A stretch of 35,183 nucleotides of DNA from IMG/VR virus record IMGVR_UViG_3300031772_000005; one strand, 5' to 3'. This DNA comes from a virus. Its lineage: Duplodnaviria > Heunggongvirae > Uroviricota > Caudoviricetes. This document shows, one piece after another, positions 3,629 through 32,713 of this stretch. Position 1 is the first letter of the stretch, and each line of letters opens with the position of its first letter. The position numbers and the translations under genes were made by a program. A model generated the notes under the pieces. The model had not been told where the DNA came from. It saw only the letters and a list, made by a program, of their open reading frames with translations, and did no database searches.

Positions 3629-6600
3629 TACCTTTGAGATATTTGATTTTTACTATTACTTATTTTAAGAATCATATTTATGTCTCCTGAAACTTCTCTC
3701 TTCAAATGTAATACATTTAAATAATGTCTAAGTTTTTTTCTCTGTAAAGGATCCTTATTATAATCTAAGTTAACTGGATTAAGTGTTTTAATATAACCAT
3801 TAGATTGAGTAATCCAAAGATTTTCTTCAGTATGTGCACCAGGTAAAACAGTTGTACCTGGAATTACTGGAGTAGTATTAGGATAAGTTGATCCAATAGG
3901 AAACTCTCCTCTATCTCTAGTTATATCCCAGAATTGATTAAATCTATATTTGTTTTCTTCTTTAGAGAATAAGATATCATAAGAAGGATTAGTTAAATTT
4001 AATTTAGGATAAGCTAAACTTAAAGTAATATTATTCTTTGGAAATATATTTAAATTAAGATATCCGGATACTTGTTCTGAATTAAATACAACAGCTGCAT
4101 CAAAGTTAAAATCAAGTACTTGATACTGATCAACACAATTAAATTCAGATCTTTTATAACATTCTAACATATACTCCATAGACTTTACTGTAGTAATAGT
4201 CTGGCCTGTTACCATTGGTATTTCAACTTCAAAAGGATAATCTATACCATAGTAATTACAATAAGAATTACATGAATCATTATGTCTCCATACTCCATTT
4301 TCTTTAGTAGTCATGAAAGTATGCTTAGACGGCATAACTAAATCCGGATGCCAATCATGAAATGAAATCCAAAATTTAGATTTAGGATCATAACTAGCTG
4401 TCCATGAGGCATTTTCAAATAAAAGGGGGTCTCCTAAAGCAAAAGGAGTTTTACCTAACATAAATGCGTTAGCTTCATCATCATAAGTTACTCTACCGAC
4501 ATACTGTGGTTTTAATTTATAATCTTTTTTACAGAAGTATAATATACTATTCTGATTATCAAAAACTGATTGACATCCAATACCTGCTACTGGATTATCT
4601 TGATGTGGGTAATCTGGAAAATCTTGAGTAAGTTGATATGGCATAAATAAAGTATACCACCATTTTAATCCTTCAGAAGATATTTCTGTTATACCTTGTG
4701 TATATTGAAATATTTTACCTTGATTTTGTGACATATAAAACATACCTGCCGGAGTAGATATTACACTTCTTCTATTTTGAGAAGAACCATACTCATATGC
4801 ATCATCTGAAATTACTACGCTTTGAGGAGTTTGTGAAAATAAACCACCATCACCTATAGTAATTTTAGTACCAGCTTCAGTTTGTAATTGATCAATACCT
4901 TGAATAACTAAAGGACTTGCATTTTTAAATGTAATAAAGATACCAGTCTTAGCAAAGTTTTTAACCCCACTGATTTGATTTTTAAATTCTTTATAATTAT
5001 TAGCTAAGTATACATACCAACTATCTTTAAATGATTGTTGTTGTTGGGGTAAAGAATATATTATTCTATCTGGATAATATGTATAACATAACTTAGCTAC
5101 ATTAGGATCATAATACCTACTTTGTAAGGCTCCTTGTGAAAAATATTGTGTAAATATCTTAGATACACTTAATGAATAGTCATAAGCATAATAGTTACCT
5201 CTAGTAATAGTTTCTGGATTATTTCCAAATATAGCCGGTAAATCAGTAAAGTTATAAGGATTATAAACTTGTTCAGCTATTGTATTACCACTTTGTCTAA
5301 AATCTACAAGTACATCACTCTCTACAAAAAAGTCTCTTACTGAAGAATTGTTTAAATAAAAATATGATTTTTTAACTCTAAAAAATCCTGGATAATTACC
5401 ATGTGAATCATTATTATAGTCATAACCAGGATGAGATATTCCTAAACCTGATATCCAATCTGTATAGTCTAAATTATAAAAACCAGTAGGTAAAAAACCA
5501 GTTCCTGTAATAGTTCCATTTATAAAATTTGAAATATTAGATACACTAAAAATTTCTGTTAAATTATTTACATCATATCTTTGACTATTAGCCCAAAATC
5601 TTGGAGCTCCAATCATATTTCTTTGATAGTAATTATATTCAAAACCATCTGGTTGTCCATATAACCAGTCATAGAAAAAGAACATGCTGTTCTTTTCAGT
5701 ATATCTATTTATATAAGTATCTCCTCCAAAAAAGACTGGAGTACTTACTATTACTTGTTGACTTAATTGTCCAATACCTGGACAAAAAGTACTAGTAATA
5801 ATAGTTTCTATACCTGAATCAGATAAGTGTTGTTCACAAGGAGTTGCTATTAATTGCTTAATAGAATTTAACTGTCCATATTGATTATCTATTCTTACTT
5901 TAACTCCAGCATAATGACTAGCTATAGTTGTATTAAATTCATCAGTAGGATTATCTGTTGTATTAACACCCATACCTGCTATAGCTGCTGTACCTAATGT
6001 AACTAATGAATTATCTACAGAACCGTTAACAATATCAGATGGGCCATTAATAAATCTAGGTCCAAAATCCTGATTAAATTTATTAGTTGTTCTTAATACA
6101 ACTGTGTGAGAACGTTTAAGATTATTAATTTTATAGTTTAATCCACTAAATTCTGGAACTTGTTGTAATGTATCTTTTAAATAAAAACTATCTACAAGAT
6201 TAAATCTTACAGTACTAGTTGCTAAAGGTGCAAAGTATGTATCATAAAAACCATGTGCAATAGACTGTAATGCATAGTCATCATATGGAGCTAAAGCATA
6301 CATTAATCTTAATGCTATTTCAGCTCCTTCAGAAAAATAAAAAGCTGCTTGTTGTACATTTGCTACTATACTTAATGCTGTACCAAGATATTCAGTTTTA
6401 CCCATAGTTCTTGAATAATTCAATGTTTCATTTTGAATTACTCCAAGTCCTGCTGCTGTATTAGCAGCTGCTCTAAGTACAGCATTATATCCATCTAAAA
6501 TACTATATCCTGCAAATGCATCAGCAATATTAAGACCTGTACTAAAATATGTAGCTATTAAACCATTATACAGCCCTACTGCAGCTGACCATGCAGCTTG

Positions 6601-8880
6601 TCCAGCATATACAGTTGGATTTGTTTGTCCATATATTAAAAGATCTGCATAAGCTGCAGTACTTGGAGCTTGATTAAGAGTAAACTCACCACCTGTAGAT
6701 ATAATAGATTCAATAATACCAGCTACCAACATTGGAAACACTATTGCATCAGATAATAATTTAAATTGAGGATGTTGATCAGGTATTATAAATTGTTGAG
6801 TACTGGTTCCTTTTAAATTACCATATAATTTTAATTCACTATTAGATAAAAAAGGATGTCTAAATCCAGTATCCGGTGAATGAAAAGTTATTATATTAGA
6901 AGGAACTGACTGATTTATAACAGTTCCGTTTTCATCAGTCAATTTTATATAAGGGTCATTTTGTCCTGCTACATGTCCACCTATTAAACTACTAATAGGT
7001 GTGATAGTATTAAATGGATAATTAGGATATAATCCTGTTGGTAATCCAGTTGGACTATTAGTACCATTTTTTATATTATAAGTTCTAAGGTTATTAAGCA
7101 TACCCTTAGCAATAATAGTTTTATTACCTTCTCTTGATCCTCTTAATATTTCATATCCTAGAATACCGGGTATATCATTACCATCATTATCTTTAGGATA
7201 TATAATATTTTTAAAATCAACACCCATGATTCTAATTTTTTGACCACCATTAGTAAAATGGTTATCAACTTTATTATCTGGAAATTTATGATGTCTAATC
7301 GGTAAACCACATAAGTCATATGCGGGACTTGGTATACTTTGTCCTGTCCAACATTGAGATGTTGAATTCCATAGGTCCGGCCTATTATTAGGATAGATCT
7401 CAGTTGATTGCCAGTAACCCATTTTCCCTCTAGCTACAACTACTCCACCATCATCTAATGTTGATTGAGTTGTACTAGTTACAGTAGCTGTATTAATAGT
7501 TTGAAATAAAAGAGTATCTCCTGTTAAAGTATTAAGATCATTATAAGCTGTGTTTTCTATTTGTCCATTATAAGATACAGCTACTCTACCTGGTATATGA
7601 TAAGAAGAAGATTTATCTCCTGTATCATAAACCCATCTAATAAAGAAAGGGTATACTTCATCTCTTAAATAACTAGGTTTATGTCCTCCGTCAATATAAT
7701 AAGAAGCCGGATATTCTACAGATACCCATTCAGTTTGAATAAGATTAGCTAATGGTTGATAATTAAAATCAAATTTTGCTGTAGGACCCACTCTAAGTAA
7801 ATAGTTATTTACCTCAATCATCTGATCTGATTTTTCAAATACAGGTGTTTGAATAGGTAGTAGTCTTATAGGAACATTTATTAAATCTAATTTTATTTGA
7901 TCTAATTGTATATTAGTGGTTTGTGTAGAATATATTCCAATTTCTTTAGCTACAGTACCTTGATTAACAGTTTGTACTACTACTAATATAAACTCATCAA
8001 AATTTTCTGTATCAGCTTCTATTTCTATATTAAGAGATCCTTCTGAATCATTAACAGAATATATAGGTTGAATATTACTTCCTGAAAAGTAGTCAGTTAC
8101 TTTTTGACCATTAATAGAATAAGCTAAAGTAACTGAATAAGATCCATTTAATAATGTTCCCGCACCAACACCTGGACTAACTTTAATACAAGGAGTTTTC
8201 ATTAGTCTTGCTAAACGCAAAGCATCACAATCTAAATCAGTTGTATCTATACAATATTCACATGTAGTATCTGGTTTACATAATTGTATCCAAGCAACTC
8301 CTGGCCATTGCATTGTAAAAGTTCCATTGGTATATGTATTATTATTATTCCATACATAATCAGCTGATGGCCAAGTTTGAGGATCTCCTATATTAATATA
8401 TTTATCTGGATTTAAACCATCAGCAAAAAATACAGTCCATGAACAATTTTGAGTTTCTCTTGATGCTCCAGATATTAAAGAGTACTTACTAAAGTTTAAA
8501 CATATGTCTTGCACTATAGGTCTGTAATTACAACTGTCTTCTTCATATAAACCTATCTCAGATCCTATAGCTGGTCCTAATCCAGTAGATGCATAAGCTA
8601 CTGTAAATAAAACCCATTTATCACTATATAAATATATGGTCCCGATTATATATCTTTTAGATCCTACAGGGCCTAAAGTTTGACCTGCTATTGCACAATT
8701 TATATTTGATGACTCATTTGATAATGCACCTAAATCTCCTTCAAGAGTATTATTAGATGCATTACGTGCATGTGTCCACATACCTTCTGATACAAAAGAA
8801 GGATCAGAATCTTTATTAAGACCCTTTACAAAAGTATTAGTATTAGTATCTGTTGTACCTTGTATATTTTTTTTTGCCAT
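3628..8880 (-). CDS. Tail stabilisation / muzzle protein (P22 gp10-like), 1750 aa
   Basis: Size, beta-rich composition, N-terminal 'F.KGLNKD.DP......W..A.N' pattern typical of this family, and position after two ring proteins. Confidence 0.8.
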   Translation of the reverse strand: MAKKNIQGTTDTNTNTFVKGLNKDSDPSFVSEGMWTHARNASNNTLEGDLGALSNESSNINCAIAGQTLGPVGSKRYIIGTIYLYSDKWVLFTVAYASTGLGPAIGSEIGLYEEDSCNYRPIVQDICLNFSKYSLISGASRETQNCSWTVFFADGLNPDKYINIGDPQTWPSADYVWNNNNTYTNGTFTMQWPGVAWIQLCKPDTTCEYCIDTTDLDCDALRLARLMKTPCIKVSPGVGAGTLLNGSYSVTLAYSINGQKVTDYFSGSNIQPIYSVNDSEGSLNIEIEADTENFDEFILVVVQTVNQGTVAKEIGIYSTQTTNIQLDQIKLDLINVPIRLLPIQTPVFEKSDQMIEVNNYLLRVGPTAKFDFNYQPLANLIQTEWVSVEYPASYYIDGGHKPSYLRDEVYPFFIRWVYDTGDKSSSYHIPGRVAVSYNGQIENTAYNDLNTLTGDTLLFQTINTATVTSTTQSTLDDGGVVVARGKMGYWQSTEIYPNNRPDLWNSTSQCWTGQSIPSPAYDLCGLPIRHHKFPDNKVDNHFTNGGQKIRIMGVDFKNIIYPKDNDGNDIPGILGYEILRGSREGNKTIIAKGMLNNLRTYNIKNGTNSPTGLPTGLYPNYPFNTITPISSLIGGHVAGQNDPYIKLTDENGTVINQSVPSNIITFHSPDTGFRHPFLSNSELKLYGNLKGTSTQQFIIPDQHPQFKLLSDAIVFPMLVAGIIESIISTGGEFTLNQAPSTAAYADLLIYGQTNPTVYAGQAAWSAAVGLYNGLIATYFSTGLNIADAFAGYSILDGYNAVLRAAANTAAGLGVIQNETLNYSRTMGKTEYLGTALSIVANVQQAAFYFSEGAEIALRLMYALAPYDDYALQSIAHGFYDTYFAPLATSTVRFNLVDSFYLKDTLQQVPEFSGLNYKINNLKRSHTVVLRTTNKFNQDFGPRFINGPSDIVNGSVDNSLVTLGTAAIAGMGVNTTDNPTDEFNTTIASHYAGVKVRIDNQYGQLNSIKQLIATPCEQHLSDSGIETIITSTFCPGIGQLSQQVIVSTPVFFGGDTYINRYTEKNSMFFFYDWLYGQPDGFEYNYYQRNMIGAPRFWANSQRYDVNNLTEIFSVSNISNFINGTITGTGFLPTGFYNLDYTDWISGLGISHPGYDYNNDSHGNYPGFFRVKKSYFYLNNSSVRDFFVESDVLVDFRQSGNTIAEQVYNPYNFTDLPAIFGNNPETITRGNYYAYDYSLSVSKIFTQYFSQGALQSRYYDPNVAKLCYTYYPDRIIYSLPQQQQSFKDSWYVYLANNYKEFKNQISGVKNFAKTGIFITFKNASPLVIQGIDQLQTEAGTKITIGDGGLFSQTPQSVVISDDAYEYGSSQNRRSVISTPAGMFYMSQNQGKIFQYTQGITEISSEGLKWWYTLFMPYQLTQDFPDYPHQDNPVAGIGCQSVFDNQNSILYFCKKDYKLKPQYVGRVTYDDEANAFMLGKTPFALGDPLLFENASWTASYDPKSKFWISFHDWHPDLVMPSKHTFMTTKENGVWRHNDSCNSYCNYYGIDYPFEVEIPMVTGQTITTVKSMEYMLECYKRSEFNCVDQYQVLDFNFDAAVVFNSEQVSGYLNLNIFPKNNITLSLAYPKLNLTNPSYDILFSKEENKYRFNQFWDITRDRGEFPIGSTYPNTTPVIPGTTVLPGAHTEENLWITQSNGYIKTLNPVNLDYNKDPLQRKKLRHYLNVLHLKREVSGDINMILKISNSKNQISQR

Positions 8881-9917
8881 TACACTATTCTTGATGGTCC
8901 ATAATTATTACTATAGATACTATTTATGGAATGTGACTTAAACATATCATAATACTTACTGTACATAGCTTTTCTATTAGTTACCCATAGTTTCTTCATC
9001 TCAGCAAAGTTAGGTGTGTTAACCATACTTAAAGCATTGTTTCTAGCTGCCTTAAGTCTTTGTTCTATTAACCCAAGTTTTTGTGTAACATCCTCACCAT
9101 TCATGTATAAGTTCTCAAGCAATCTTTGCTTAAGTGCATATTCATAATATTCATTAAGTAAGTCATGATCCGGAACTAATAGACTTCCTTCCTCATCTTC
9201 TAGATTACCTTGATAGTTTAAATATATACTACATGTTTCCATATTAGTATATAAGAAACCATTTTTAATCCAACCTTCATTTGGTGTATTGTAATATAAG
9301 TTAGGACAGTCACATTCAATATTTTGACTAGTTTTCATTCTTAAAGGAATAAGACTACTATAAGTTCTTGTTTGTGAAGCATTTACAATTTGTACTAATT
9401 CATAAGCTTGACCTTTACAATTTAGAAATACTCTTGGTTTAATACAAGTATCTCCATAAGGATTATTTGGATCATATTGTCCTGGTAAATAAGAAGGTGG
9501 TCTTACAGATCCCTCACATGCTGCAGTATGATTACAAGGATTACTATTACATGTAGAACAATTAACGGAAGGAGGGGAACAAAAATCTACTGTAGATGGC
9601 GTTTCTGTATAAGGCACTTCTTGTATATTAGTTCCACCGATATCATATCCTGTATTTACAGAAAATTCACCACAGATGAATGCAAAATTAAATGTATAGA
9701 AATCATCCGGTAATTTTACTTTACCATGACAAACTTCTAATACAACTTCTTTTGTCATATTAATTCTAAGGCCAAGATCATATGTTACTCTTTTAGCAAC
9801 TTTAATAAGTTGTTGAGGTTCAATCATATTCTCTAAAGTATATCCTGAAAAGTCAATACTAATATCTTCAAGCAATTGCTCAAATGTACGGTACTTAAGT
9901 GTGTAGTTATAATCCAT
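8880..9917 (-). CDS. Tail ring / tubular protein with Cys-rich insertion, 345 aa
   Basis: Directly upstream of the muzzle gene; C-terminal 'VPDHDLLNEYYEYALKQRLLE' helix typical of P22 gp4-like adaptors. Confidence 0.65.
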   Translation of the reverse strand: MDYNYTLKYRTFEQLLEDISIDFSGYTLENMIEPQQLIKVAKRVTYDLGLRINMTKEVVLEVCHGKVKLPDDFYTFNFAFICGEFSVNTGYDIGGTNIQEVPYTETPSTVDFCSPPSVNCSTCNSNPCNHTAACEGSVRPPSYLPGQYDPNNPYGDTCIKPRVFLNCKGQAYELVQIVNASQTRTYSSLIPLRMKTSQNIECDCPNLYYNTPNEGWIKNGFLYTNMETCSIYLNYQGNLEDEEGSLLVPDHDLLNEYYEYALKQRLLENLYMNGEDVTQKLGLIEQRLKAARNNALSMVNTPNFAEMKKLWVTNRKAMYSKYYDMFKSHSINSIYSNNYGPSRIV

Positions 9918-10588
9918 TATCTTATAGCATTTTGACTGTCATCAGAACCATTTGTTGGAATGTTTAATGTTAAACTAAGTTCCTTAATTACAAACTGTTC
10001 AATTTCAGAAAATAAATATTCAGGAAAAGCAAATTGTTGTTCTTGTTTAGGTGTACAAGAATCATTTGGTTCACACATAAAATCTCCTGTGGATCCTTCA
10101 TATATTGCTTCTACTTTAATAGCATCCCAATCTACATTAGGTATATATAAATAACCATTTAAAAACCAAAAGTATATTTTCTTATTATATTTATGAGTAG
10201 ATGTTTTAGTCATAGATACATATAGAGAAGGTTCTGTTCTAAATAATTTTATACTTCCGTCTATAGAACTAGTATTTCTAATTATGGGCCCAAACATACC
10301 ATCAAAGATTGTAGGTAGTTTTTCTTTAGTTCTTTTAATAATACATCCTGAATGTATACCCACACAGTCAGCTTCAATTTTATCAATATCAATTAACTCT
10401 ACATAAGGTAATACATGAAATAGAGAACTCATTTTCATAAGTCTATTTTGGTTGTCTTCTCTTTTTAAAAGAGTCTTACCATACTTAAGTAAAGAAAAAT
10501 ATATTGTACGGTCTGTTAAAAAAGGATCCTCTTTAACAGCTTTCAATGTATTTCTTACTCTAGATATTGCTTCTCCTATTGTTGTCAT
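9917..10588 (-). CDS. Tail ring / tubular protein, 223 aa
   Basis: Synteny; adaptor-like N-terminal helix (TIGEAISRVR) and C-terminal 'FPEYLFSEIEQFVIKEL'. Confidence 0.65.
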   Translation of the reverse strand: MTTIGEAISRVRNTLKAVKEDPFLTDRTIYFSLLKYGKTLLKREDNQNRLMKMSSLFHVLPYVELIDIDKIEADCVGIHSGCIIKRTKEKLPTIFDGMFGPIIRNTSSIDGSIKLFRTEPSLYVSMTKTSTHKYNKKIYFWFLNGYLYIPNVDWDAIKVEAIYEGSTGDFMCEPNDSCTPKQEQQFAFPEYLFSEIEQFVIKELSLTLNIPTNGSDDSQNAIR

Positions 10589-11169
10589 AAGTCAAATTCA
10601 TTATATGTTTTAAGCTGGTAGGCTTCTTTATTTTTACGCATTTCTTTAAGAACTGTTCCTTGAAATATCTTACGTATCTTTTTCATAGGATCAACTCTAA
10701 TATAATTCATCCAGTTCTCAGGATATGTTTTAGCTAAAGTTCTTTTAAAATTTCTACACCCTACAAAAGCCCAGCATTCTCTATTTATAAATTTATATTT
10801 AGTAGAATCATTAGTATAAAATATTTTAGCTAGTTTACCATCTGTATCCCAATTAGTATTACTTACTAAAAAACCATATTTATTTGATTTACCAAAATCA
10901 ATATTATTTTTTTTACTAGTTTGACATGTACCAATAAACAGATTACCTAACTCTTCTGGAAATTTTACACCGTCCCTACTATTTATAGCTGTATCATAAA
11001 ACAACTCATTAAATTTTTTAATTATATTTCTTAATTCTTTATTATTTACATCTTTAAACCTGGGATGCTTTTCTTTAAATCTTTTAAAAAAATCATCACT
11101 CATAATATGGTGCACTTTTTCTGTATACCTCGGTGCATTTAAATCTGGTTTGTTAAATACTTTACTCAT
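10585..11169 (-). CDS. IHF/HU-like DNA-binding protein, 194 aa
   Basis: Basic; helix-helix then 'GVKFPEELGNLFIG' strand pattern of the HU/IHF fold; crAss-like phages carry such a gene in the tail module. Confidence 0.65.
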   Translation of the reverse strand: MSKVFNKPDLNAPRYTEKVHHIMSDDFFKRFKEKHPRFKDVNNKELRNIIKKFNELFYDTAINSRDGVKFPEELGNLFIGTCQTSKKNNIDFGKSNKYGFLVSNTNWDTDGKLAKIFYTNDSTKYKFINRECWAFVGCRNFKRTLAKTYPENWMNYIRVDPMKKIRKIFQGTVLKEMRKNKEAYQLKTYNEFDL

Positions 11170-11320: not shown

Positions 11321-11983
11321 TTATCCAATAATTGTTATACGTACTGTAAATGATTCTGCAGTAGCAGTGTCTATATAAAAACTAATATTTCCTGTTATAA
11401 CATCTGATGAAACTAATAAAGTTGGTTCATTCATAAGACTTACCCATTTATTTGAAATAGTTTCTAAAAACATAATGTTGTATGTAAAATCTGCTGATTG
11501 AATTGTAGGTGTAGTATTACTACAACCTAAAGTTATTAAACCACATGCTGCAAGATCAATACCAAGAAGAGTCAAGGTTACATTTTCAAGTACAACATTA
11601 TCAAAACTTTGAACATATTTTCTTACACCTGTATTTGAAACTGTATATGTTGTTGTAATACCTACTACAGTTGGTACTACTTCAATACCAATTCCGGCTT
11701 CAACAATTACTATTGGGATATTAGCTATCTCATTACAAAAGTAGTCTACTATATTATTTAATGCTATGTTAATTGGAGTAGTAGGATTTACTACAACAGT
11801 AGAGTCACATATGATAGCTAGATTAGTATATACAATACATTGTGAATCAAATGTTTCTGAACACAATTGTGCTTCAGGACAGTCTACAGGAGTAGGACAT
11901 GGTAGTGGTGATGTTAAGTAACTATCAGTACATCCGCACTTAGTACTATTTCCACAATTATTATTACATTTTGAACAAGACAT
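11321..11983 (-). CDS. Cys-rich virion fibre/accessory protein, 220 aa
   Basis: N-terminal CSKC..C..KCGC and further Cys clusters; shares a Cys domain with the neighbouring 545-aa protein; beta-rich C-terminus. Confidence 0.6.
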   Translation of the reverse strand: MSCSKCNNNCGNSTKCGCTDSYLTSPLPCPTPVDCPEAQLCSETFDSQCIVYTNLAIICDSTVVVNPTTPINIALNNIVDYFCNEIANIPIVIVEAGIGIEVVPTVVGITTTYTVSNTGVRKYVQSFDNVVLENVTLTLLGIDLAACGLITLGCSNTTPTIQSADFTYNIMFLETISNKWVSLMNEPTLLVSSDVITGNISFYIDTATAESFTVRITIIG

Positions 11984-11993
11984 ATTTTATATT

Positions 11994-13631
11994 TTAACAG
12001 ATTATACCAGTAATAGTAGATACAGTACATGGATTAATAAATGAAGTTAATCCATCTATTCTTACACCTAAACCTCCTAGTTCTTCTGCAAGAGTTGAAT
12101 TAACACTAAAAGGATATATTGATGCATCATAAAATAATTCTGTAGGTTGTAAACCTGCAGCTGCGGAATCATATACACTAGTTGCAGCAGAAAATTTAGG
12201 AACATGATCTCCAGCAGTTACAATAGATTGAATATAATTTATAGGTGATGTATTATAGGCTGCTGTACTTCCTGCTACTACACTATCTTCAGCATTAGTT
12301 GAAACTCCCCATTGTAAAACACCATTTGTACCAATATTAAGACTAGTTAAACTTGTTAACATAGTACTTGTAGTTCCTACATCAATAGGTCTAACAGCAA
12401 TTTTCCAACCTAAACCGTATGTTTGATCAAGTGTTTCTCCTACAGATAATATACCTGCTGGTATTACACTTGCTCCTTGATTAAATTCTATATAACCACC
12501 AACTCCAATATTACAACTACCAACTCCTGTAGCTGCTGTGTATGCATAAGGTGCTGCAAAATAACTATCATAACCAGGTGATGATTGATAACCATAAGTT
12601 AAAGCAGCTCCTCCTAATGTTGAAGCTAAAGGAACGGTTAGTAATCCTCTAAAATGTACAACATTACCAATACGTCTACATTGTGGTCTAAATGAAGCTG
12701 AACCTGTTTTTGCCATATCATAAAATGTAAAGCCTTCTAAGTTTATCCAACCTGTATCAATTATTCTTGCTGTTAATAATCCACCTGTGTAAGTTAAATC
12801 AATTGTACTTGTATCAGCAACTGTAAGTGATGCATTATATAAATCACATAAAGCAATCCATATATGATTAAGAGTACTAGCTACAGTACTAGATGTTGGA
12901 TTCCATGATGGATAAGCAACTTGCATTTGTACTCCTGGATTTGCTCTTGACATGTCTGTTCCAGAAATACATTCAGCAGCTATTGATGTAATTAATTCTG
13001 CAGTAGTTCCTGTAGCATCATAAAAATCACACCATACACCATTTATAAAAGCTTCAAGAATTATATCTATTTGTGAACTCCCTGGAGCTAATGTTCCAAT
13101 TTGACAATCAGTAATAAAAGAAGGTAATGTAAAAGTAGGATCTGGAGCATTTTCTAAAATAGTTACTCTAATATCTAAACTAGTTAATGCAGCGTTTATA
13201 AGTACAAGTTCATCAACAATACTACAAATCTTAGCTGCAATCATATTTACATAATCTGTAAGATTCATTGTAGTTTGATTACCTACAACAAAACAATCTG
13301 CTACAGTTACTAAACAATCTGGACATCCAGTAGTATTTTTAATTTCACTTGGGGTAATTCCTTGTAATTCACAAATTTGAGAAATTAAGAATTGAATCAA
13401 TGCTTGAAAGTCATTTGGTCCACAAGCTGTAATACCAAAACATGTAAGATCATAGTTAGCTACATTTAATGTATCTAATATTCCACATAGTTCTGTTGCT
13501 AATGCAAACACTACATCAGACACTGTATTTCCATTACATAGATTGATACATGGAATGTTAGGTCCTGCCCAAATAACACAATTACTTGATATTGGACTAC
13601 AGGGTGCTGTATTTAAATTTGTAGGTTTCAT
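11994..13631 (-). CDS. Tail/head fibre (putative receptor-binding protein), 545 aa
   Basis: Cys-rich N-terminus, heptad coiled coil (IVDELVLINAALTSLDIRVTILE), and 'DTGWINL...RRIGNVVHFRG' motif typical of phage fibre C-terminal domains. Confidence 0.7.
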   Translation of the reverse strand: MKPTNLNTAPCSPISSNCVIWAGPNIPCINLCNGNTVSDVVFALATELCGILDTLNVANYDLTCFGITACGPNDFQALIQFLISQICELQGITPSEIKNTTGCPDCLVTVADCFVVGNQTTMNLTDYVNMIAAKICSIVDELVLINAALTSLDIRVTILENAPDPTFTLPSFITDCQIGTLAPGSSQIDIILEAFINGVWCDFYDATGTTAELITSIAAECISGTDMSRANPGVQMQVAYPSWNPTSSTVASTLNHIWIALCDLYNASLTVADTSTIDLTYTGGLLTARIIDTGWINLEGFTFYDMAKTGSASFRPQCRRIGNVVHFRGLLTVPLASTLGGAALTYGYQSSPGYDSYFAAPYAYTAATGVGSCNIGVGGYIEFNQGASVIPAGILSVGETLDQTYGLGWKIAVRPIDVGTTSTMLTSLTSLNIGTNGVLQWGVSTNAEDSVVAGSTAAYNTSPINYIQSIVTAGDHVPKFSAATSVYDSAAAGLQPTELFYDASIYPFSVNSTLAEELGGLGVRIDGLTSFINPCTVSTITGIIC

Positions 13632-13660
13632 ATTTATGTATATTATTAATATAGTAAAAA

Positions 13661-15808
13661 TTATTGATTATTACAAGTTCCTGATGAACTTGATATGGGT
13701 GTATCACAACATGTACCTGAAGAAACACAAGTATAATCTGGATTAACTAATGTTGCTAAATTTATTAATTCATATTTTAATTCCCATTTTTCTCTATCTT
13801 CTGGACAACATGAAGTTATTCCATATCTTTTTTCTAATGCATTACTATACATTGCATCAGCAAAAGAACATACTATTTCTTCATAATGATCAATAGTACA
13901 TGTAGGTGTATTATATCCGGGTCTTACTGTTCTAACTATTTCTGGTACTACTGGACAATTAAAAGTTTTATCAACATTTGTACAGTCTCCATATATAGTA
14001 TACTCGTATTGATCTTGAGGCATTAACCATTTCTTTACACAAGTTTTTGGTGATATCTCATTAAGTAACATACCACTTCTTGAAGTTTGGATTATACCAT
14101 TACAATCTATCCAACTTAACATGTTACAGTTTACATTATCAATAACCGTGTAAGGGATATTAAATTGTTGATTCTTAGATCCACAAAAAGGTATAGTTAT
14201 TTCATTTTTATGTTGTGGAATATTAATATCATGTATTACACCAAGACAATCTGTATATGTTATAACACCTACAAATAATATAGGAACATTAATATTATAA
14301 TAAACACATGGATTAATTAGTTTTACTGTTTGACATGTACAAGGTAAAACATCTATTAAACATTCATCACAAGTTATATAAGCACCTTTTAAAAATACTA
14401 CAGTAGAACTTGTATGGTTTCTTGTTTCTGAAACTTGCCAGCATGTTTCTGGACACCAATCTAATGTTATTACATCTCCAATATTTGCAGATAAATCTGT
14501 AGTAGTTATAATATCTGGTTCTACTGATGTACAATCAGTAAGAAGATAATAAGTTTGTTCACATGTAGTACAATTAATAAATGAATTAGTGACTACAATT
14601 GCAGTATTACTTGGGGGTTGTAAAAAGAATTCTTCTACATACCAACATCCTGGACAAGCTTGTTCTATAACTTGATTAACATATACTGATAAATCAGTAG
14701 ACGTATACATTACATTTGCTGAGTTAGCGCAGTCTGTTAGTTTATAACTTGTGTATCCCGCACATGTTGCACAATCTACATAAGTAGTTGTAATAACAAT
14801 ATTAATAGCACATGCACAATCTTCTTTAGAGGTAGTTACTGTCCAACAATTGGTATAACCATTAATATGAAATGCAGCTCCTGTACCTAAAAAAGGTAAT
14901 ACTGATTCTGATGTAGTATAAATTGGATCTGCTAAACCATCACAGTCAGTTAATACATAACATGATTGCGGACATAGTTCATCTATGCATGCACCAAAAG
15001 TTGTAACTGTAGATCCATTTAAAGCATCTACAACTGGATATATATCTGAACAAAACTTTAATGGGCCAATAGCATCTACTATTAAATCAGCACTTACATA
15101 TGTAATACTTCCTGTATTTACATAATAACAAGTTGATGCACAACAATCAACTCCCATTGCATTAAATGTAACAACTTGAGGATCAAGACAATTTGAAGAT
15201 ATATTATCATATACTAAAAAACATATATCTGGATACTCTACAAGTGTAATAGATACACCAGTATTTGAATATAAACTTAAATCACTTACACTATTAAAAG
15301 GAATTATACTACCATCACAAGAATATAATGTATAACAAGGAGGGGTAGGACAAGCACCATCTATACAAGCTCCATAATCTAATATATCTCCACCAGTAAA
15401 CCATTGCTTAACACAGTATTTTAAAGATCTATCTCCTGGATTTAATATCTCGGTTAATTGTATATTACCGTTACAATCAATATATCTAAGTTGTGCTGCT
15501 ACAGTAGCTAAATTAATTGCTGTACTACATTGACATGGTGATGCTATACATCCACAATTTGCTGTATCACCACAACCACCTGATACAAGAGTAAATGTAG
15601 CAAGTAAAGGAGCATTAATTAAACCTAAAGGTGGTTGAGCAGGTAAACTAGCTGTGTAACATTGATTAGGAACTAAATCATTACCAAAACTATCTTGTAC
15701 TAAAATACCTGTATAATTATATACACCAGGTACTATACCATTAGTAATAAACTTTAAAGGAAGTGAACCAACACAACAGGGTGTAAGTAAAAGATAGTTA
15801 GCTGCCAT
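13661..15808 (-). CDS. Cys-rich repeat virion protein, 715 aa (start moved to MAANY)
   Basis: The track start at 15889 overlaps a separate small gene; ATG at 15808 lies just after that gene's stop. About 57 Cys by hand count, internal repeats. Confidence 0.75.
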   Translation of the reverse strand: MAANYLLLTPCCVGSLPLKFITNGIVPGVYNYTGILVQDSFGNDLVPNQCYTASLPAQPPLGLINAPLLATFTLVSGGCGDTANCGCIASPCQCSTAINLATVAAQLRYIDCNGNIQLTEILNPGDRSLKYCVKQWFTGGDILDYGACIDGACPTPPCYTLYSCDGSIIPFNSVSDLSLYSNTGVSITLVEYPDICFLVYDNISSNCLDPQVVTFNAMGVDCCASTCYYVNTGSITYVSADLIVDAIGPLKFCSDIYPVVDALNGSTVTTFGACIDELCPQSCYVLTDCDGLADPIYTTSESVLPFLGTGAAFHINGYTNCWTVTTSKEDCACAINIVITTTYVDCATCAGYTSYKLTDCANSANVMYTSTDLSVYVNQVIEQACPGCWYVEEFFLQPPSNTAIVVTNSFINCTTCEQTYYLLTDCTSVEPDIITTTDLSANIGDVITLDWCPETCWQVSETRNHTSSTVVFLKGAYITCDECLIDVLPCTCQTVKLINPCVYYNINVPILFVGVITYTDCLGVIHDINIPQHKNEITIPFCGSKNQQFNIPYTVIDNVNCNMLSWIDCNGIIQTSRSGMLLNEISPKTCVKKWLMPQDQYEYTIYGDCTNVDKTFNCPVVPEIVRTVRPGYNTPTCTIDHYEEIVCSFADAMYSNALEKRYGITSCCPEDREKWELKYELINLATLVNPDYTCVSSGTCCDTPISSSSGTCNNQ

Positions 15809-15809
15809 T

Positions 15810-15989
15810 TTATTTAATTTGATTAGATGGTATTGGTGTAATTTGATTTTGTAATGGTTTAATAATATTTTGATTTTTAGTAATTTCATACTTACCTATA
15901 CAAGATGAGCATGCTGATTTACCATCTGATGTTACTCTTTTTTGACATCCGCAAGAAAGATTTTTTTTACAATTTGAACACTGAGCCAT
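15810..15989 (-). CDS. Small Cys-rich protein, 59 aa (MAQCSNCKKNLSCGCQKRVTSDGKSACSSCIGKYE...)
   Basis: Below the ORF-track cutoff. Fills the gap between two genes, has an A-rich leader (AAAAACCAATAAATATG), stop 1 nt before the next ATG, and six Cys as CxxC, CGC, CxxC. Confidence 0.75.
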   Translation of the reverse strand: MAQCSNCKKNLSCGCQKRVTSDGKSACSSCIGKYEITKNQNIIKPLQNQITPIPSNQIK

Positions 15990-16008
15990 ATTTATTGGTT
16001 TTTAATAG

Positions 16009-16551
16009 TTAACAGTTTTTACAATCTAATTTATTTAATAATTTTAAAGCATAGTTATATAGTGTCATTCCTTTATCCGGTTCTAGACAAAATTCTACTT
16101 TAGCTTTAGCTGCATCTAAATACATTCTTATTAATCTTAATTGTTCTAATTTCTTTTTGATTAAAGCTGGTGGATCACACGCAGCAATATCTACTCTACA
16201 TAATATATTATTATACTTAATAAGAGCTTGAGTAATTCTTAAATGATTATATTCTACAAATACTAAATCATTTGGTGATACACTGTATTTAATTATATAT
16301 ACACCATCTGGTATATTTACATATGATGTACCACAATTAGCAGTTTGTAATTGTAAATCACATGCAGTTAGTATTTTATTAAATCCCGGAATAACATCAA
16401 TTTGATTTGAATAATTAAAACCTGGTACAGTAATATTTAATGTAGCACAAGTTAAAGGTACAATATCTGAATATACACTAGTATCTATTATACTTAAAAT
16501 ACATGCATTCATTACTGTAGGTACTTCTAAACTTAATACATGATTTGCCAT
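16009..16551 (-). CDS. Probable tail hub / fibre-docking protein, 180 aa
   Basis: Beta-sandwich N-terminus ('IPDGVYIIKYSVSPN') plus helical C-terminus; position after the auxiliary capsid-like gene. Confidence 0.5.
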   Translation of the reverse strand: MANHVLSLEVPTVMNACILSIIDTSVYSDIVPLTCATLNITVPGFNYSNQIDVIPGFNKILTACDLQLQTANCGTSYVNIPDGVYIIKYSVSPNDLVFVEYNHLRITQALIKYNNILCRVDIAACDPPALIKKKLEQLRLIRMYLDAAKAKVEFCLEPDKGMTLYNYALKLLNKLDCKNC

Positions 16552-16563
16552 AGTATAAAATAT

Positions 16564-16600
16564 AAAAAAGGGAAAGGAGTTTGAAACCCTCTCCCTTTTT
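16564..16600 (-). terminator. Intrinsic terminator after the 533-aa gene
   Basis: AAAAAGGGAGAGGGTTTCAAACTCCTTTCCCTTTTTT: GC-rich hairpin with G-U pairs and a U tract. Confidence 0.8.
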
Positions 16601-16622
16601 GATTATTAATTATTTAAATATG

Positions 16623-18224
16623 TTATTTCTTTACTGATGGGAAAGGTGTTACTGGAGTACAATCAGTTCCACAAGTAAACTCTTGGAATGCGCATTCAGT
16701 TCCACAACTTTCTAACCAATCATTAACAGCAGTTTCAAGATTTGGAATAGTAGCATTTGTAATAACTTCTAATAAATATCTGTCATTATCAAAAGTACCT
16801 GAAGGATTATTAAATCTTGGAACTACATGTAGTAAGTAGTAACGTGTATATAATGCAGTACGGTCAATTGCAGTAACTAATTGATTACCTTGAGTAATTT
16901 CACGAATTCTAAAATCAGATGCAAGGAAGTTTTGACGGTAAGACTCAGATAAAATCAAGTCACGTAAAACTGATTCACCAAGACCCATTGCTTGATTACC
17001 TTCACATTCTGTTACTACACAAATTCCTTCAAACTCACATGGATCACCGTTAAAATCAACTTCAGATGCATAAAGTTTAACTGGTTGCTTTTCATAAAAA
17101 TCAGATATTTGGAAAGTACAATCTCCAAATTTAGTATCTACATAAGCACCATTCATAATCATTCCTGCACAAGTTCCATCTACATGACCTGGAGATACAT
17201 AATTATCCCAAGTATTTGCACCAACTGCTAGCAAGAAAGCTGCTGAAGTTCCTGGTGCATACCACAATACACCTGCTTCATCTTGTACTATAATTTCTAA
17301 GAAAGATTTAGTTATTGGAGAATTAAGTAAAGCATTAGCCCAAAGAATAAATACTTCAGTTGAATCAACAGCTGTTGGAGCAAGCGCACCTGTAGCACAA
17401 CATCCTGTGTATGCATCAGCAATTAAATAAGCATTGTGATTTAACAAACGTAAAGCAGGAGAACCTTTAATATCTACACGTAATGAATAAGTTTCACCAC
17501 ATAAGAACTCTTTGCAACAATTTGCAGTACCTGCTGCTACACTTACAGTATCAATTGTTACAGTTGCATCACTATTACCACCTACTAATGTAACTACATC
17601 TGCAGCAGTATAACCTTTTCCTGGATTCATTACATCTATAATTGTAGGTACTCCTGCAGCTACAGTTGCAAAATATGTTAAACCTGTTCCTGTACCACCT
17701 GTAGTAGTAAATAAAACTGGAGTAACAGAGTTAGCATAACCTGTTCCATCAATATTATCTGTGTAAGTTAATACAGCTTCACCTGCAGTATAAGATGTTG
17801 AACCAACATTGATAACATTAGTACTAGGTAAACATGGGTCAACTCTATAAAAATCAGAAACATATTTAGGGTTAATCATTTTAGACTTGTTAGTCTCTTG
17901 ATAACCTCCTGCAAAAGGACCAATTTTATCATTAGTATAAATTGCAGAACCAGCAAGATAAGCTGAACAGCAATTAGCTAAATCAGATAATAGATTAGTC
18001 TTAGGATCAAAGAATCCAAAATATCCATTATTGTATGCAGTACCTAAAGCAGGTAATTGATTAAGTGCATAACTAGGAATATTATCCCCTGTAGGTAAAA
18101 CAAAACCAAATGAAGTATCTACATTAGTTAAAATAGTACCATTAAGTAAAGTTACACTTTTATTTGTCAAGGTACTTCCTGTACCTAAAAACGTTTTTTG
18201 AAACGCATGATTAAAATAAGCCAT
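16623..18224 (-). CDS. Abundant structural protein, probably auxiliary capsid protein, 533 aa
   Basis: Own AT-rich leader and own terminator (suggests high expression); beta-rich; syntenic with the auxiliary capsid gene of crAss-like phages. Confidence 0.55.
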   Translation of the reverse strand: MAYFNHAFQKTFLGTGSTLTNKSVTLLNGTILTNVDTSFGFVLPTGDNIPSYALNQLPALGTAYNNGYFGFFDPKTNLLSDLANCCSAYLAGSAIYTNDKIGPFAGGYQETNKSKMINPKYVSDFYRVDPCLPSTNVINVGSTSYTAGEAVLTYTDNIDGTGYANSVTPVLFTTTGGTGTGLTYFATVAAGVPTIIDVMNPGKGYTAADVVTLVGGNSDATVTIDTVSVAAGTANCCKEFLCGETYSLRVDIKGSPALRLLNHNAYLIADAYTGCCATGALAPTAVDSTEVFILWANALLNSPITKSFLEIIVQDEAGVLWYAPGTSAAFLLAVGANTWDNYVSPGHVDGTCAGMIMNGAYVDTKFGDCTFQISDFYEKQPVKLYASEVDFNGDPCEFEGICVVTECEGNQAMGLGESVLRDLILSESYRQNFLASDFRIREITQGNQLVTAIDRTALYTRYYLLHVVPRFNNPSGTFDNDRYLLEVITNATIPNLETAVNDWLESCGTECAFQEFTCGTDCTPVTPFPSVKK

Positions 18225-18286: not shown

Positions 18287-18724
18287 TTATTTTAAGAATA
18301 AAAGTTTGTACTTAGTAGAATTTAGAGAATCCTTAACTGTATCTAGAGCATTTACTATTTCTGAATAAGGCATCTTGGATTGTAAACTAGACACCATACT
18401 GTAAATTTCACGGATATATTTTATAGCATCATCTACTGAATTTAATATTGTAGGAGAAGCTTCAGTATAACTTAATAGTTTTTCACTAGCACCTTGATAT
18501 CCTTCAGCTAAGTCATCAGCATGTCCAGGTAAAGCATCATATAAATCATTAAGTGCTTTATGACCAGCATATGAACCTACACCAGTTATTTTAAGATGTA
18601 ATTTATGAAATGATGTACCAGCATTCATTAGTTCTGATACACATGCAGCAGTCATAGAATCTATAGATCCTGTTGATGGTGCTGAATAACTTGCACTTCT
18701 TTTTAGCATTCTTTGAGTTTCCAT
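18287..18724 (-). CDS. Dps/ferritin-like four-helix bundle protein, 145 aa
   Basis: 'FHKLHLKITGVGSYAGHKALNDLYDALPGHADDLAE' matches the Dps-type H...H...DxxAE ferroxidase spacing. Confidence 0.7.
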   Translation of the reverse strand: METQRMLKRSASYSAPSTGSIDSMTAACVSELMNAGTSFHKLHLKITGVGSYAGHKALNDLYDALPGHADDLAEGYQGASEKLLSYTEASPTILNSVDDAIKYIREIYSMVSSLQSKMPYSEIVNALDTVKDSLNSTKYKLLFLK

Positions 18725-18729
18725 TATTT

Positions 18730-19434
18730 TTAATTATTACGTTCTGCTCCCTCTGTACCTCTAGAGAATTGATTTCCTGATTCTATATCTCCAGCAATAA
18801 CACTAGCTGTTTCATCTATTAAGAGTTCTATAATATCATCTTTAAATTCACATTCAACATCTACAGTAGATGCTACACCGGTATAAGGATCTACACAGTT
18901 TAATATTTGAATCTTAACTGGTTGTCTGTAATAAATGAGATTAGCATTACCTATAGTAAATTTATCATTAGTATATAAGTTAACTTGATTATTAATCAAT
19001 GTAGCAAAAGTTTCACCCCACTCAAAATTTGGAGTCTTTGCAAGATCTCTTAATAAGTTATTCACGTTAGCTTCTTCAGCTAGATATACTATCATTCTTT
19101 TATTAGTATCACAACACTCTTCTGTATTAGCAAATATATCTACTCTTTTCCACTGTAAGTAATTAGCCGGTATAGGAGCTGAATATAATATTTCTTTTTT
19201 AGAAATACCTAACGGTTGAGTATTAAGTAGTACTTGTAAGTCATCTATTCTTCTAGTAGAAGCTTCATCACCTTCCTTAACTATATTAATACCGTGTAGT
19301 TGTCTTCTAGCCCATTCAACTTGAACTTTATTAAACCCTTCAACAATTTGCCAACATTCAATGTTGTCATAGTCTTGACTATCTAATTTATTTAGACGTT
19401 GTTTAATCTTTATGGCAAGAGTGCTGTTTAACAT
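18730..19434 (-). CDS. Head-tail ring/adaptor protein, 234 aa
   Basis: 'IKIKQRLNKLDSQDY', 'E.ST.RIDDLQVLL' and 'YYRQP.KI' patterns of crAss-like ring proteins; synteny. Confidence 0.6.
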   Translation of the reverse strand: MLNSTLAIKIKQRLNKLDSQDYDNIECWQIVEGFNKVQVEWARRQLHGINIVKEGDEASTRRIDDLQVLLNTQPLGISKKEILYSAPIPANYLQWKRVDIFANTEECCDTNKRMIVYLAEEANVNNLLRDLAKTPNFEWGETFATLINNQVNLYTNDKFTIGNANLIYYRQPVKIQILNCVDPYTGVASTVDVECEFKDDIIELLIDETASVIAGDIESGNQFSRGTEGAERNN

Positions 19435-22272: not shown

Positions 22273-23889
22273 TTAGAATGATCCACCAGTAATTGGATTT
22301 CTCATAACAATCTTAAGAACCTTAGTTGGATCTTTAACCCAGATAGCTGGCATTGTTTGAGACATCATTACACGGTAACCGTTAAATTGTCCAGATGATT
22401 GGAATCCTTGAGTACGTCCCATGTAGTCCATAGTACCATTTTGATACCACCACTTCAATTGGTTATCCCAAGATAATTTCAACATAAAGATATTATCATT
22501 TGTATTATCAGTAATATCAAAGATAATGAAAGAATAAGATGACAATGGGAAACCATCAATGATTGGGTTTTCAATATCATTAGTGTGGATGTTATCAAAT
22601 GCTGGATTCAATACAAACTTAACATTAGCCAAGAATGGAATAACGTAAGAAGTATATGCAAATCCAAAATTCAAGTCCATTCCTTTACCAGTGATTGCAC
22701 CAATATCTGCAGCTTGAATTAACAAACCAGAAGATACAGCTTCACGTTTAATAGCCTCATTGACCATACGCATACCACCCATACCTGTTTGTACTACTAG
22801 AGAACGTTTAGGATCTGGACCTTGGAATTCAACTTTACCATTAAAGAAGTTGTAGATTTCTCCACGGAACAAGTCTAATGTAAAGTTATTCTTATTGTAA
22901 ATTCTTTTGTAAGAATTATCCAATTGCTTCCAAAGACCTACAGATAATCTAACATCATCTGGTCCATCTTGACGTACACGTCCACCATGACCCCACATAA
23001 GGTAAGTCTCAATATCCGTAGCAATTTTAGTTAAGTGAGCTGCTTCCATATTAGTTAAGAAAGTACGTGACAAATCACCATTGTCAAATGCTTTTTTAAC
23101 TGAATCTTTACCCATAGTTTTAACCATGTCCTCTAAAGAGTTCACAGATGGATCAATATTCTTATCAAAGTTTCTCCAGATTTCAGTTACAGGAACTGTT
23201 CCATCTGCATTCATTCCACCTTTAATCATCAAGTCTGCACGTGATGAAATAGAATAATGTACGTGAGCTTCAGCACCTCCTACAAAATTGTAGAATTCAC
23301 GGAAACCTGTGTTAGTTTGGATGTCAGAGAATCTTTCACCATATTCACCTCTTGCAGAAGACTTACGGAAAACCTTAGTTCCATTAGCAAGATACTTGTT
23401 ATCAAGATATTTGTAGTTATCATTGTTAACTAACTGTACTGTGTAGATAAAACCATCTCCAATTGGAAGGATATCATCTGCAGTAATGTACATCTCAACA
23501 CCGTTATATTTATCATAAGTGATGATATCACCATGACCAAATTCACGTTTGTTAAGTTTGATTTTGAAGGTAGTACCATCTACACCTTTGAAATCATTAC
23601 CTGATTCAATGTCTTCAATAATGTATGGTAAGTCTTGAGAAACCGGAGTTTGCCATTTGTACTCACCACGTGCATTATCAACATTGATAACATTTTTCCC
23701 TCCAAAGCTTGATAGCTGATAGAGAGGCATTTCTACTTTCTGTGCCATTGCCCATAAATCTACTGGGCCAAGGTCCATCGGCTCAGCATCTTTCAGCATG
23801 TTCACAAGGTGGTATGAATCTACATGTGATGATGCCGCATAGGAAGTATCACGTAGGAATATACCATTGTTTAAAACTGGAGTTGCCAT
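22273..23889 (-). CDS. Major capsid protein (HK97 fold, crAss-like), 538 aa
   Basis: Position after portal and scaffold, size, strong codon bias, own terminator, C-terminal 'PAIWVKDPTKVLKI..NP.TG' pattern of crAss-like MCPs. Confidence 0.85.
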   Translation of the reverse strand: MATPVLNNGIFLRDTSYAASSHVDSYHLVNMLKDAEPMDLGPVDLWAMAQKVEMPLYQLSSFGGKNVINVDNARGEYKWQTPVSQDLPYIIEDIESGNDFKGVDGTTFKIKLNKREFGHGDIITYDKYNGVEMYITADDILPIGDGFIYTVQLVNNDNYKYLDNKYLANGTKVFRKSSARGEYGERFSDIQTNTGFREFYNFVGGAEAHVHYSISSRADLMIKGGMNADGTVPVTEIWRNFDKNIDPSVNSLEDMVKTMGKDSVKKAFDNGDLSRTFLTNMEAAHLTKIATDIETYLMWGHGGRVRQDGPDDVRLSVGLWKQLDNSYKRIYNKNNFTLDLFRGEIYNFFNGKVEFQGPDPKRSLVVQTGMGGMRMVNEAIKREAVSSGLLIQAADIGAITGKGMDLNFGFAYTSYVIPFLANVKFVLNPAFDNIHTNDIENPIIDGFPLSSYSFIIFDITDNTNDNIFMLKLSWDNQLKWWYQNGTMDYMGRTQGFQSSGQFNGYRVMMSQTMPAIWVKDPTKVLKIVMRNPITGGSF

Positions 23890-32401: not shown

Positions 32402-32713
32402 TTATAAATTATTTAATTTAGTCTCATCTTTTTCTGTTATCAATGCTTTCCATTTATGTGCAGGACAGTCTGAAGATAGAGCTCTTACTTTAAACTTAAG
32501 TGAACATCCACATAGTGAACAACAAGGTTGAGTACCTGGCATTACACATTTACTACCTTCTATATCTTTTTTAGGACAAGCATGACAAACTATTAGTCTT
32601 TGTTCTGCAATTGTTTCTACAAATTCATCACGAATAATACTATTTGTAACTCCTTCAAGAATTTGTTTTCTATTCTTCCAGATTGTTGTTAATTTTCCTT
32701 GCATTTTTTTCAA
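32402..32713 (-). CDS. Small Cys-rich, probably Zn-binding protein (~100 aa; start 32713 or 32704)
   Basis: CHAC...C...CCSLCGC...CPAHKW pattern. Confidence 0.7.
   Translation of the reverse strand: MKKMQGKLTTIWKNRKQILEGVTNSIIRDEFVETIAEQRLIVCHACPKKDIEGSKCVMPGTQPCCSLCGCSLKFKVRALSSDCPAHKWKALITEKDETKLNNL

Follow-up and report, generated by a model that had tools for sequence, protein, structure and literature searches.

The 35,183-nucleotide virus record IMGVR_UViG_3300031772_000005 from IMG/VR (Duplodnaviria; Heunggongvirae; Uroviricota; Caudoviricetes), analysed here in its whole length as the window, contains a module of five consecutive cysteine-rich genes between positions 11,321 and 16,551, designated p180, p59, p715, p545 and p220 after the length of their products in amino acids (aa). 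Our results suggest, with a probability of about 0.6, that this module encodes the tail-fibre docking hub and the fibre set of an aquatic crAss-like podovirus, whose cysteines are stapled by disulfides. A disulfide-stabilised hub, in phage crAss001, and disulfide-anchored fibres, in cyanophage Pam3, are known already; what is new is the dense, conserved and probably stapling Cys of fibre bodies and anchors, a Cys-rich insert in ring protein 1 (R1) and a putative small hub partner with six Cys (Cys6).

The five open reading frames (ORFs) lie at the positions originally given, all on the minus strand, and their products hold 105 Cys in 1,719 aa (6.1%), compared with 1.04% in the remainder of the window (odds ratio 6.2, Fisher p 2e-34) and with the 2.7% predicted from base composition. 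The major capsid protein, the 427-aa protein in scaffold position and the downstream 865-aa and 323-aa proteins have no Cys at all. The density of about 8% anticipated for the 715-aa protein was found (57 Cys, 8.0%), and its length is also right, because every homologue begins at the position equivalent to Met28 of the longer, 742-aa ORF; this start lies one base past the p59 stop codon. Composition bias was rejected as the cause of the excess: the module exceeds the base-composition expectation about 2.3-fold, the remaining window lies below it, and the Cys are conserved by position. A supply adaptation through a phage tRNA-Cys was likewise rejected, as neither the window nor a complete relative has such a gene.

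The difference between module and surroundings was seen again in all 80 related loci examined, each module gene being matched in most of them, and in the complete 113.5-kb relative. Genome-wide Cys is 1.03% in the latter, and Cys-rich structural proteins occur only in the module block; its other Cys-rich ORFs are small and non-structural (nucleases, ClpS, DUF5872 and proteins without assignment).

The window is a crAss-like (Crassvirales-type) virion operon, in which a Crass-type capsid protein, paralogous ring proteins and a muzzle protein occur together, with Pfam scores for Crass_capsid, CrAss_Ring_1, CrAss_Ring_2 and crAss_MUZ that each exceed the curated cut-off. All genes are on the minus strand, in DNA of about 30% GC, and follow the order p234, p145, p533, p180, p59, p715, p545, p220, p194, ring protein 2 (R2), R1 and muzzle, so that the five Cys-rich genes and the preceding p533 gene lie between a DUF5856 gene (p145) and R2. 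Gene order was read through in full in ten of the 80 loci, and in all ten we found the same succession together with the same Cys profile: capsid gene, followed further on by p234, p145, p533, p180, p59, a p715-like gene, a p545-like gene, a variable gene, p194, R2, R1 and muzzle. The relatives' contigs reach 123 kb, and two of them have terminal repeats.

In crAss001, cryo-electron microscopy showed that R1 and R2 are surrounded by twelve fibre-docking hubs made of tail hub proteins A and B (THA and THB), into which the N-terminus of the fibre protein gp22 docks, and that barrel and hubs are disulfide-stabilised, THA being bonded to hub and ring proteins, with hub-hub contacts as well (Bayfield et al. 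2023, PMC10172136; PDB 7QOJ, 7QOL). In the AlphaFold2 model of p180 (predicted local distance difference test score, pLDDT, 95.6), residues 1-105 form an FN3-like beta-sandwich and residues 107-176 a three-helix bundle, and the chain ends in a CxxC motif. Among 48,161 PDB representatives, its best fold match was 7qoj_G / 7qol_W (Z 9.3, root mean square deviation 3.6 A), which aligned over 145 of 177 residues and both domains, and a second look over the top 1,000 Foldseek chains returned the same best match. Chain G of 7QOJ is THA (gp38), at 5.1% Cys (mean 0.67%) the most Cys-rich virion protein of crAss001. All remaining matches were single FN3 domains or helix bundles of at most 98 residues (Z up to 8.7). 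The assignment of p180 as most likely a THA homologue is based on the modelled fold, on size, on the position of the gene and on a Cys density common to both proteins. Its family comprises 551 representative clusters; a profile search of PDB sequences returned no match, a look-alike search of the ESM Atlas nothing, and a search of GenBank phages only one weak match to a gut virome.

The p59 gene lies directly 3' of the hub gene, as does THB in crAss001, and this position points to a THB-like small hub partner. The protein was found in 77 of the 80 loci and consists of a motif with six invariant Cys (C-x2-C-x5-C-x-C-x11-C-x2-C) and a variable tail; neither Pfam nor PHROGs assigns it to a family.

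The product of p545 is predicted to be a tail fibre or receptor-binding protein built from a conserved anchor and an exchangeable head. In alignment, its N-terminal anchor, common to 1,560 protein clusters, shows a heptad-like stretch and 14 Cys that hardly vary. The C-terminal half is variable, and the head closes on a co-varying Cys pair (535/545). Among 120 matches listed, three carry a Collar head (PF07484) and eight a CBM_5_12 head (PF02839). Look-alikes found with a protein language model were trimeric viral fibre proteins, which we take as a lead only. The putative second fibre or adaptor, p220, was present in 76 of the 80 loci; its Cys/Pro-rich N-terminus carries CxxCGC and PCPTPxxCPxPxxC, followed by a motif shared with the N-terminus of p545 (hhalign E 5e-4, probability 30%), and its C-terminal part is variable. 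In some relatives, p220 is reduced to this N-terminal domain, of about 80 aa and 13% Cys. Neither protein has a family in Pfam or PHROGs, and a sequence-profile search of PDB with p545 gave no match.

The AlphaFold2 model of p715 (pLDDT 78) consists of small beta domains strung together and, after them, helices of low confidence. Two types of repeats, set by eye from conserved motifs (a BLAST self-comparison reported none), are interleaved along the chain in four copies each: type 1, CY-x-L-x-D-C ... C-W ... CxxC, and type 2, Y-I-D-C-x-G ... C-V-K-x-W. The N-terminal part is variable, and the conserved C-terminal region carries a CC pair and a Cys-rich tail. In two distant homologues (P0041 and P0042), a BNR/Sortilin-type beta-propeller head precedes two type-1 repeats and a C-terminal module shared with p715. 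We therefore consider that the protein is anchored by its C-terminus and exchangeable at its N-terminal part, with these homologues as predicted cases of natural head swapping. The family comprises 42 protein clusters and 205 loci in IMG/VR and has no counterpart in Pfam or PHROGs; a sequence-profile search of PDB found no match. Searches of PDB with the model (Foldseek, VIA wide) gave no usable fold match (best Z 3.6), the full-length 715-residue model being too long for such searches, and those of BFVD and ESM Atlas matched only uncharacterised phage proteins. Searches of GenBank phages with the DNA of 11321-18224, p715, p533 and p545 found nothing.

The original prediction of a virion appendage module is thus supported by the fold match of p180 and the Collar heads of p545 relatives. 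The three putative fibre proteins have the lowest median identities across loci (35-44%), and p715 is the fastest-evolving gene (35%, as compared with 93% for the capsid protein).

In each of the module proteins, Cys is better conserved than any other residue, with conservation values, for Cys versus other residues, of 0.79 versus 0.29 in p715, 1.00 versus 0.35 in p59, 0.85 versus 0.40 in p545, 0.74 versus 0.26 in p220 and 0.98 versus 0.71 in p180; the same holds for p533 (0.94 versus 0.52). In p715, 29 of the 55 invariant columns are Cys. One of the refutations originally named, a lack of conservation of Cys positions, therefore does not apply. Cys that do vary change in pairs in six proteins: p715 (490-521, 158-207 and 196-222), p545 (103-106 and 535-545), p220 (147-154), p533 (131-518, r 0.92, and two more pairs joining internal positions to the C-terminal tail), R1 (123-134) and p180 (columns 95/108, a Cys pair in 13% of relatives). 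Columns S225/A240 of p715 contain a Cys pair in 75% of relatives, absent from the protein of the window, and correspond to 490-521 in another repeat copy. On the p715 tree, partners changed jointly on independent branches in 6/6 (p 0.03), 3/3, about 3/4 and about 2.4/4 cases, whereas non-partner control combinations did not. Gain and loss in pairs argues for disulfides, since Cys4 metal sites would predict loss in threes or fours, and from co-variation and conservation we infer that the paired Cys of the module form such bonds. Additionally, odd numbers of Cys dominate in p533, p180, p234 and R1, so that at least one Cys per chain would be left for inter-subunit links, and vicinal CC pairs are conserved in p234, p533 and p715.

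The Cys features extend to neighbouring proteins (Table 1). The upstream 533-aa protein has, as had been noted, a Cys-rich C-terminal tail, which co-varies with its internal Cys, and three vicinal CC pairs; all 17 of its Cys are invariant across 117 sequences, and the count is odd in 110 of these. PHROG matches of residues 75-255 to virion structural proteins suggest that it is a putative conserved core virion protein, and in metagenomes its family is extremely abundant, with at least 3,412 clusters (clustering at 90% identity, search limited to 8,000 candidates) at about 61% identity. R1, which has a Cys-rich insert, contains 12 Cys, as compared with 2 in crAss001 R1, and Cys conservation in R2 is 0.99. 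The product of p234 is probably a virion structural protein, possibly a further ring protein. The p194 protein has no family in Pfam or PHROGs; it was considered as a candidate THA and rejected, as it showed no likeness.

Table 1. Position of the module, its parts and the surrounding virion genes in the window
Feature	Position	Strand	Remarks
p180	16009-16551	-	180 aa, 9 Cys (5.0%)
p59	15810-15989	-	59 aa, 6 Cys (10.2%)
p715	13661-15808	-	715 aa from Met28 of 742-aa ORF, 57 Cys (8.0%)
p715, type-1 repeats	14354-15337		4 copies
p715, C-terminal anchor	13664-13957		residues ~618-715
p545	11994-13631	-	545 aa, 20 Cys (3.7%)
p545, N-terminal anchor	12822-13631		residues 1-270
p220	11321-11983	-	220 aa, 13 Cys (5.9%)
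p220, Cys/Pro-rich N-terminus	11729-11983		residues 1-85
p533	16623-18224	-	533 aa, 17 Cys (3.2%)
p194	10585-11169	-	3 Cys (one invariant), not Cys-rich; directly upstream of R2; in 75/80 loci
R2, tail barrel	9917-10588	-	Pfam CrAss_Ring_2 E 6e-22; 4 conserved Cys
R1	8880-9917	-	Pfam CrAss_Ring_1 E 4e-9, residues 209-316 only
R1, Cys-rich insert	9417-9581		residues ~113-167
Muzzle protein	3628-8880	-	1,750 aa; Pfam crAss_MUZ E 7e-24
p145	18287-18724	-	145 aa; Pfam DUF5856; PHROG 'starvation-inducible regulator'
p234	18730-19434	-	phrog_29507 E 1e-12; invariant CC pair; Cys 27, 107, 108 and 180 100% conserved
Major capsid protein, Crass-type	22273-23889	-	Pfam Crass_capsid E 1e-31
Portal	25261-28005	-	PHROGs
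Terminase	28011-30218	-	PHROGs

We propose that p180 would act as the hub and p59 as its Cys6 partner, with p545 and p220 as fibres that have Cys-rich N-terminal anchors and exchangeable distal parts, and p715 as a fast-evolving fibre of small beta domains with a conserved C-terminal anchor. Disulfides would operate at two levels. Cys pairs inside or between small domains would be staples stiffening the fibres, whereas subunits would be linked covalently, as in the crAss001 tail, through Cys clusters, vicinal CC pairs and Cys without a partner, located at the anchoring ends as well as in the hub, R1 and R2. The bonds would form by oxidation at or after lysis, helped by assembly having brought the thiols close to each other; both the partners of these links and the timing are part of the proposal. 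One of the two options originally given, beside metal stapling, was a disulfide-locked appendage that cures either on lysis or with a phage oxidase: the disulfides agree with the pairwise gain and loss of Cys and the curing on lysis fits, but the oxidase does not, as none was found in relatives.

Among the 16 relatives that carry the module (nine of them at least 90% complete), we found no gene for Erv1/ALR, DsbA or glutaredoxin and a single thioredoxin gene, although the Erv1 search was weak and control genomes gave no match either. A thiol oxidase co-occurring with the Cys-rich module, as had been suggested, was not found in these relatives. The one thioredoxin (109 aa, PF00085 E 3.5e-32; 96428-96721 of relative G004) is regarded as an accessory gene and not as part of the module, because the other relatives do without it. 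As no known viral catalyst was found, the bonds, if real, probably form at or after lysis. Hidden oxidoreductases were also considered among the Cys-rich ORFs that the complete relative has outside the module, and rejected: those with a family match or readable motifs are EndoVII (Pfam) and HNH-like (motif) nucleases, ClpS and DUF5872, and the others match nothing.

Several observations weigh against a disulfide-stapled hub and fibre set. The Z score that links p180 to THA is less than 1 above those of single-domain FN3 matches, and their profiles show no significant similarity, with hhalign probabilities for p180 and gp38 of 1.1% (17-sequence profile) and 0.5% (62-sequence profile). The presence of p715, p545 and p220 in the virion is itself presumed. 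Most Cys are invariant and give no co-variation signal, and each co-variation test has few independent contrasts, with only one reaching p 0.03. Lastly, repeats C and D of p715 combine a CPxC knuckle in a beta-hairpin with a CxxC at a helix start, which is also treble-clef zinc geometry, and some p715 relatives have metallothionein-like, CxC-rich C-terminal tails; these tails and the Cys6 motif of p59 could bind metal.

The last points bear on the possible, if on balance unlikely, explanation that the fibres are metal-stapled, most of the conserved Cys being thiolate ligands of Zn(Cys)4 or cluster sites (zinc ribbons, treble clefs and metallothionein-like tails) that fold small domains in the reducing cytoplasm, perhaps alongside disulfides at a subset of sites. 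It agrees with the CxxC...CxC...CxxC arrangement of p59, with the rarity of His, as in Cys4 sites, and with the lack of an oxidase in relatives, which zinc would not need. However, variable Cys were gained and lost in twos, not in threes or fours, and the paralogous repeats A and B of p715 lack half of the zinc-type ligands. In repeat A, loss of the knuckle Cys goes together with that of the first helix Cys, and the adjoining Cys are kept. Moreover, no zinc-finger family of Pfam matches any module protein, odd Cys counts dominate, and the homologous hub of crAss001 uses disulfides.

Returning to disulfides, an unlikely extension is oxidative curing: fibres would be reduced and loose in the cytoplasm and become locked, and the particle fully infective, only after contact with oxygen outside, with CxxC motifs shuffling bonds, and reduction at the host surface might trigger infection. 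That the disulfides act as a switch, so that particles mature on oxidation or reduction at the host surface frees or re-arranges fibres for ejection, appears very unlikely. The release of fibres and the contraction of Pam3 by dithiothreitol (DTT; PMC9942802), the many CxxC at helix starts, as in thiol-disulfide oxidoreductases, and the lack of a phage oxidase in relatives would suit such gating, but most pairs fall within small domains, as staples would, and a switch and a static brace look alike in sequence. Finally, it is highly improbable that the Cys-rich genes encode secreted or intracellular accessory proteins within a structural operon, or reflect a composition artefact, because, although p715, p545 and p220 match no named family, the genes are syntenic between hub gene and R2 in 76-80 of the 80 loci, p180 matches a virion hub protein, p545 relatives have tail Collar heads, and Cys are position-conserved far above background and depleted elsewhere.

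With crAss001, the window shares the virion gene set (Crass_capsid, Ring_1, Ring_2 and muzzle), the Cys density of the hub protein (5.0% in p180, 5.1% in THA) and a hub gene upstream of R2 with a small partner gene next to it (the crAss001 order being gp34/35, gp36, gp38, gp39, gp40, gp43 and gp44). Conversely, in the window the hub pair is separated from R2 by three putative fibre genes and p194, whereas the crAss001 fibres gp22-gp26, with 0.3-1.3% Cys (3.7-8% in the window), are encoded after the portal. We found no fibre genes after the portal of the window, so its fibres must be encoded elsewhere, which fits fibres within the module. The two phages also differ in the Cys-rich insert of R1, in the small partner (59 aa with Cys6, as opposed to 114-aa THB with 2 Cys) and in habitat, aquatic for the window phage and gut for crAss001, and p180 has no detectable sequence similarity to THA.

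Fibres of the freshwater cyanophage Pam3 are disulfide-linked to Cys-rich loops of the baseplate wedge and released by DTT, which also triggers contraction; its authors proposed a redox-dependent mechanism (PMC9942802). Like the window phage, for which the bonds are predicted, Pam3 is an aquatic phage in which an N-terminal fibre segment is disulfide-anchored to a Cys-rich platform, and no dedicated oxidase has been described; unlike it, Pam3 is a myovirus with an unrelated baseplate and one junction Cys per fibre chain, as compared with dozens inside the fibre body. The premise that such chemistry is foreign to tailed phages is therefore not borne out, given the hub disulfides of crAss001 and the anchored fibres of Pam3. 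The claim of unusual virion chemistry stands for the Cys density inside the fibres and falls for the hub, whose level of about 5% is shared with THA.

Interchain cystine knots tie the chains of trimeric or dimeric extracellular fibres in the C-terminal CC knot of collagen III and the CPxCP hinge of immunoglobulins, both of which fold in the secretory compartment, where conditions are oxidising and dedicated catalysts are present. Comparable motifs, without homology, are the CC pairs of p715, p533 and p234 and the PCPTPxxCP of p220, at chain ends of presumed oligomers. Poxviruses have a cytoplasmic disulfide pathway, consisting of E10R/Erv1-ALR sulfhydryl oxidases with thioredoxin-like partners. 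The window phage would resemble them in making virion proteins in a reducing cytoplasm that are disulfide-bonded later, but differs in that the 16 relatives gave no Erv1/ALR, DsbA or glutaredoxin, and thioredoxin in only one.

By capsid (29% identity), R2 and hub, the nearest cultured phage is Leptolyngbya phage Lbo-JY46 (PP438436.1), unclassified within Caudoviricetes, whose 174-aa protein belongs to the p180 family (hhalign 99.1%). Since Lbo-JY46 has a crAss-type capsid, R2 and a hub homologue, crAss-type tails reach cyanobacterial phages. Its fibre contains 1.8% Cys, and the genome has two tRNA-Cys genes. We found no literature on Lbo-JY46 or on cysteine-rich crAss-like fibres. R2 is also common to phages of Flavobacterium psychrophilum and Cellulophaga. 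In Flavobacterium phage Fpv1 (NC_031914.1), gp19 (7837-8583, 248 aa) lies in the same gene block and has 5.2% Cys, with 3.4% in the ring-2-like gp26 and 0-1.9% in neighbours; gp19 may be a candidate for the hub of this phage, which is in culture and infects a fish pathogen.

In aquatic metagenomes, the clade is very common, as seen from the cluster and locus counts of p533, the p545 anchor and p715, and has no characterised member, its closest cultured relative being an unstudied cyanophage. For these phages, the module offers an initial map of the tail (hub, partner, fibres and anchors), with the most Cys-dense fibre proteins among those compared, and raises the question of how virion parts rich in disulfides come about when the bacterial cytoplasm is reducing and the virus supplies no oxidase. 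Host prediction and the study of receptor binding would benefit from conserved anchors with swappable heads. Persistence in oxic water, as originally suggested, may be linked to this chemistry. Should the bonds be redox-sensitive, oxygen gradients would alter phage decay and infectivity, and if oxidative curing holds, the ambient redox state would directly govern how infective phages are in water columns.

Three further observations concern other proteins. In the complete relative (G005), the part of the genome expected to encode the virion RNA polymerase and the cargo proteins (55136-83320) has five giant genes in a row, for products of 2,065, 3,841, 2,215, 759 and 496 aa. These contain altogether 4 Cys in 9,376 aa, and the capsid and scaffold-position proteins have none; it seems that Cys has been removed from proteins whose passage through the tail requires unfolding. 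The product of p145 has Dps/ferritin-like helices and is encoded inside the virion operon, between ring-like p234 and p533, a gene kept in 59 of the 80 related loci. Lastly, a 103-aa ORF among early/DNA-metabolism genes of the window (32402-32713, minus strand), with no family match, has 8 Cys (7.8%) in CxxC and CC-x-L-C-G-C motifs and probably encodes a small zinc-binding protein.

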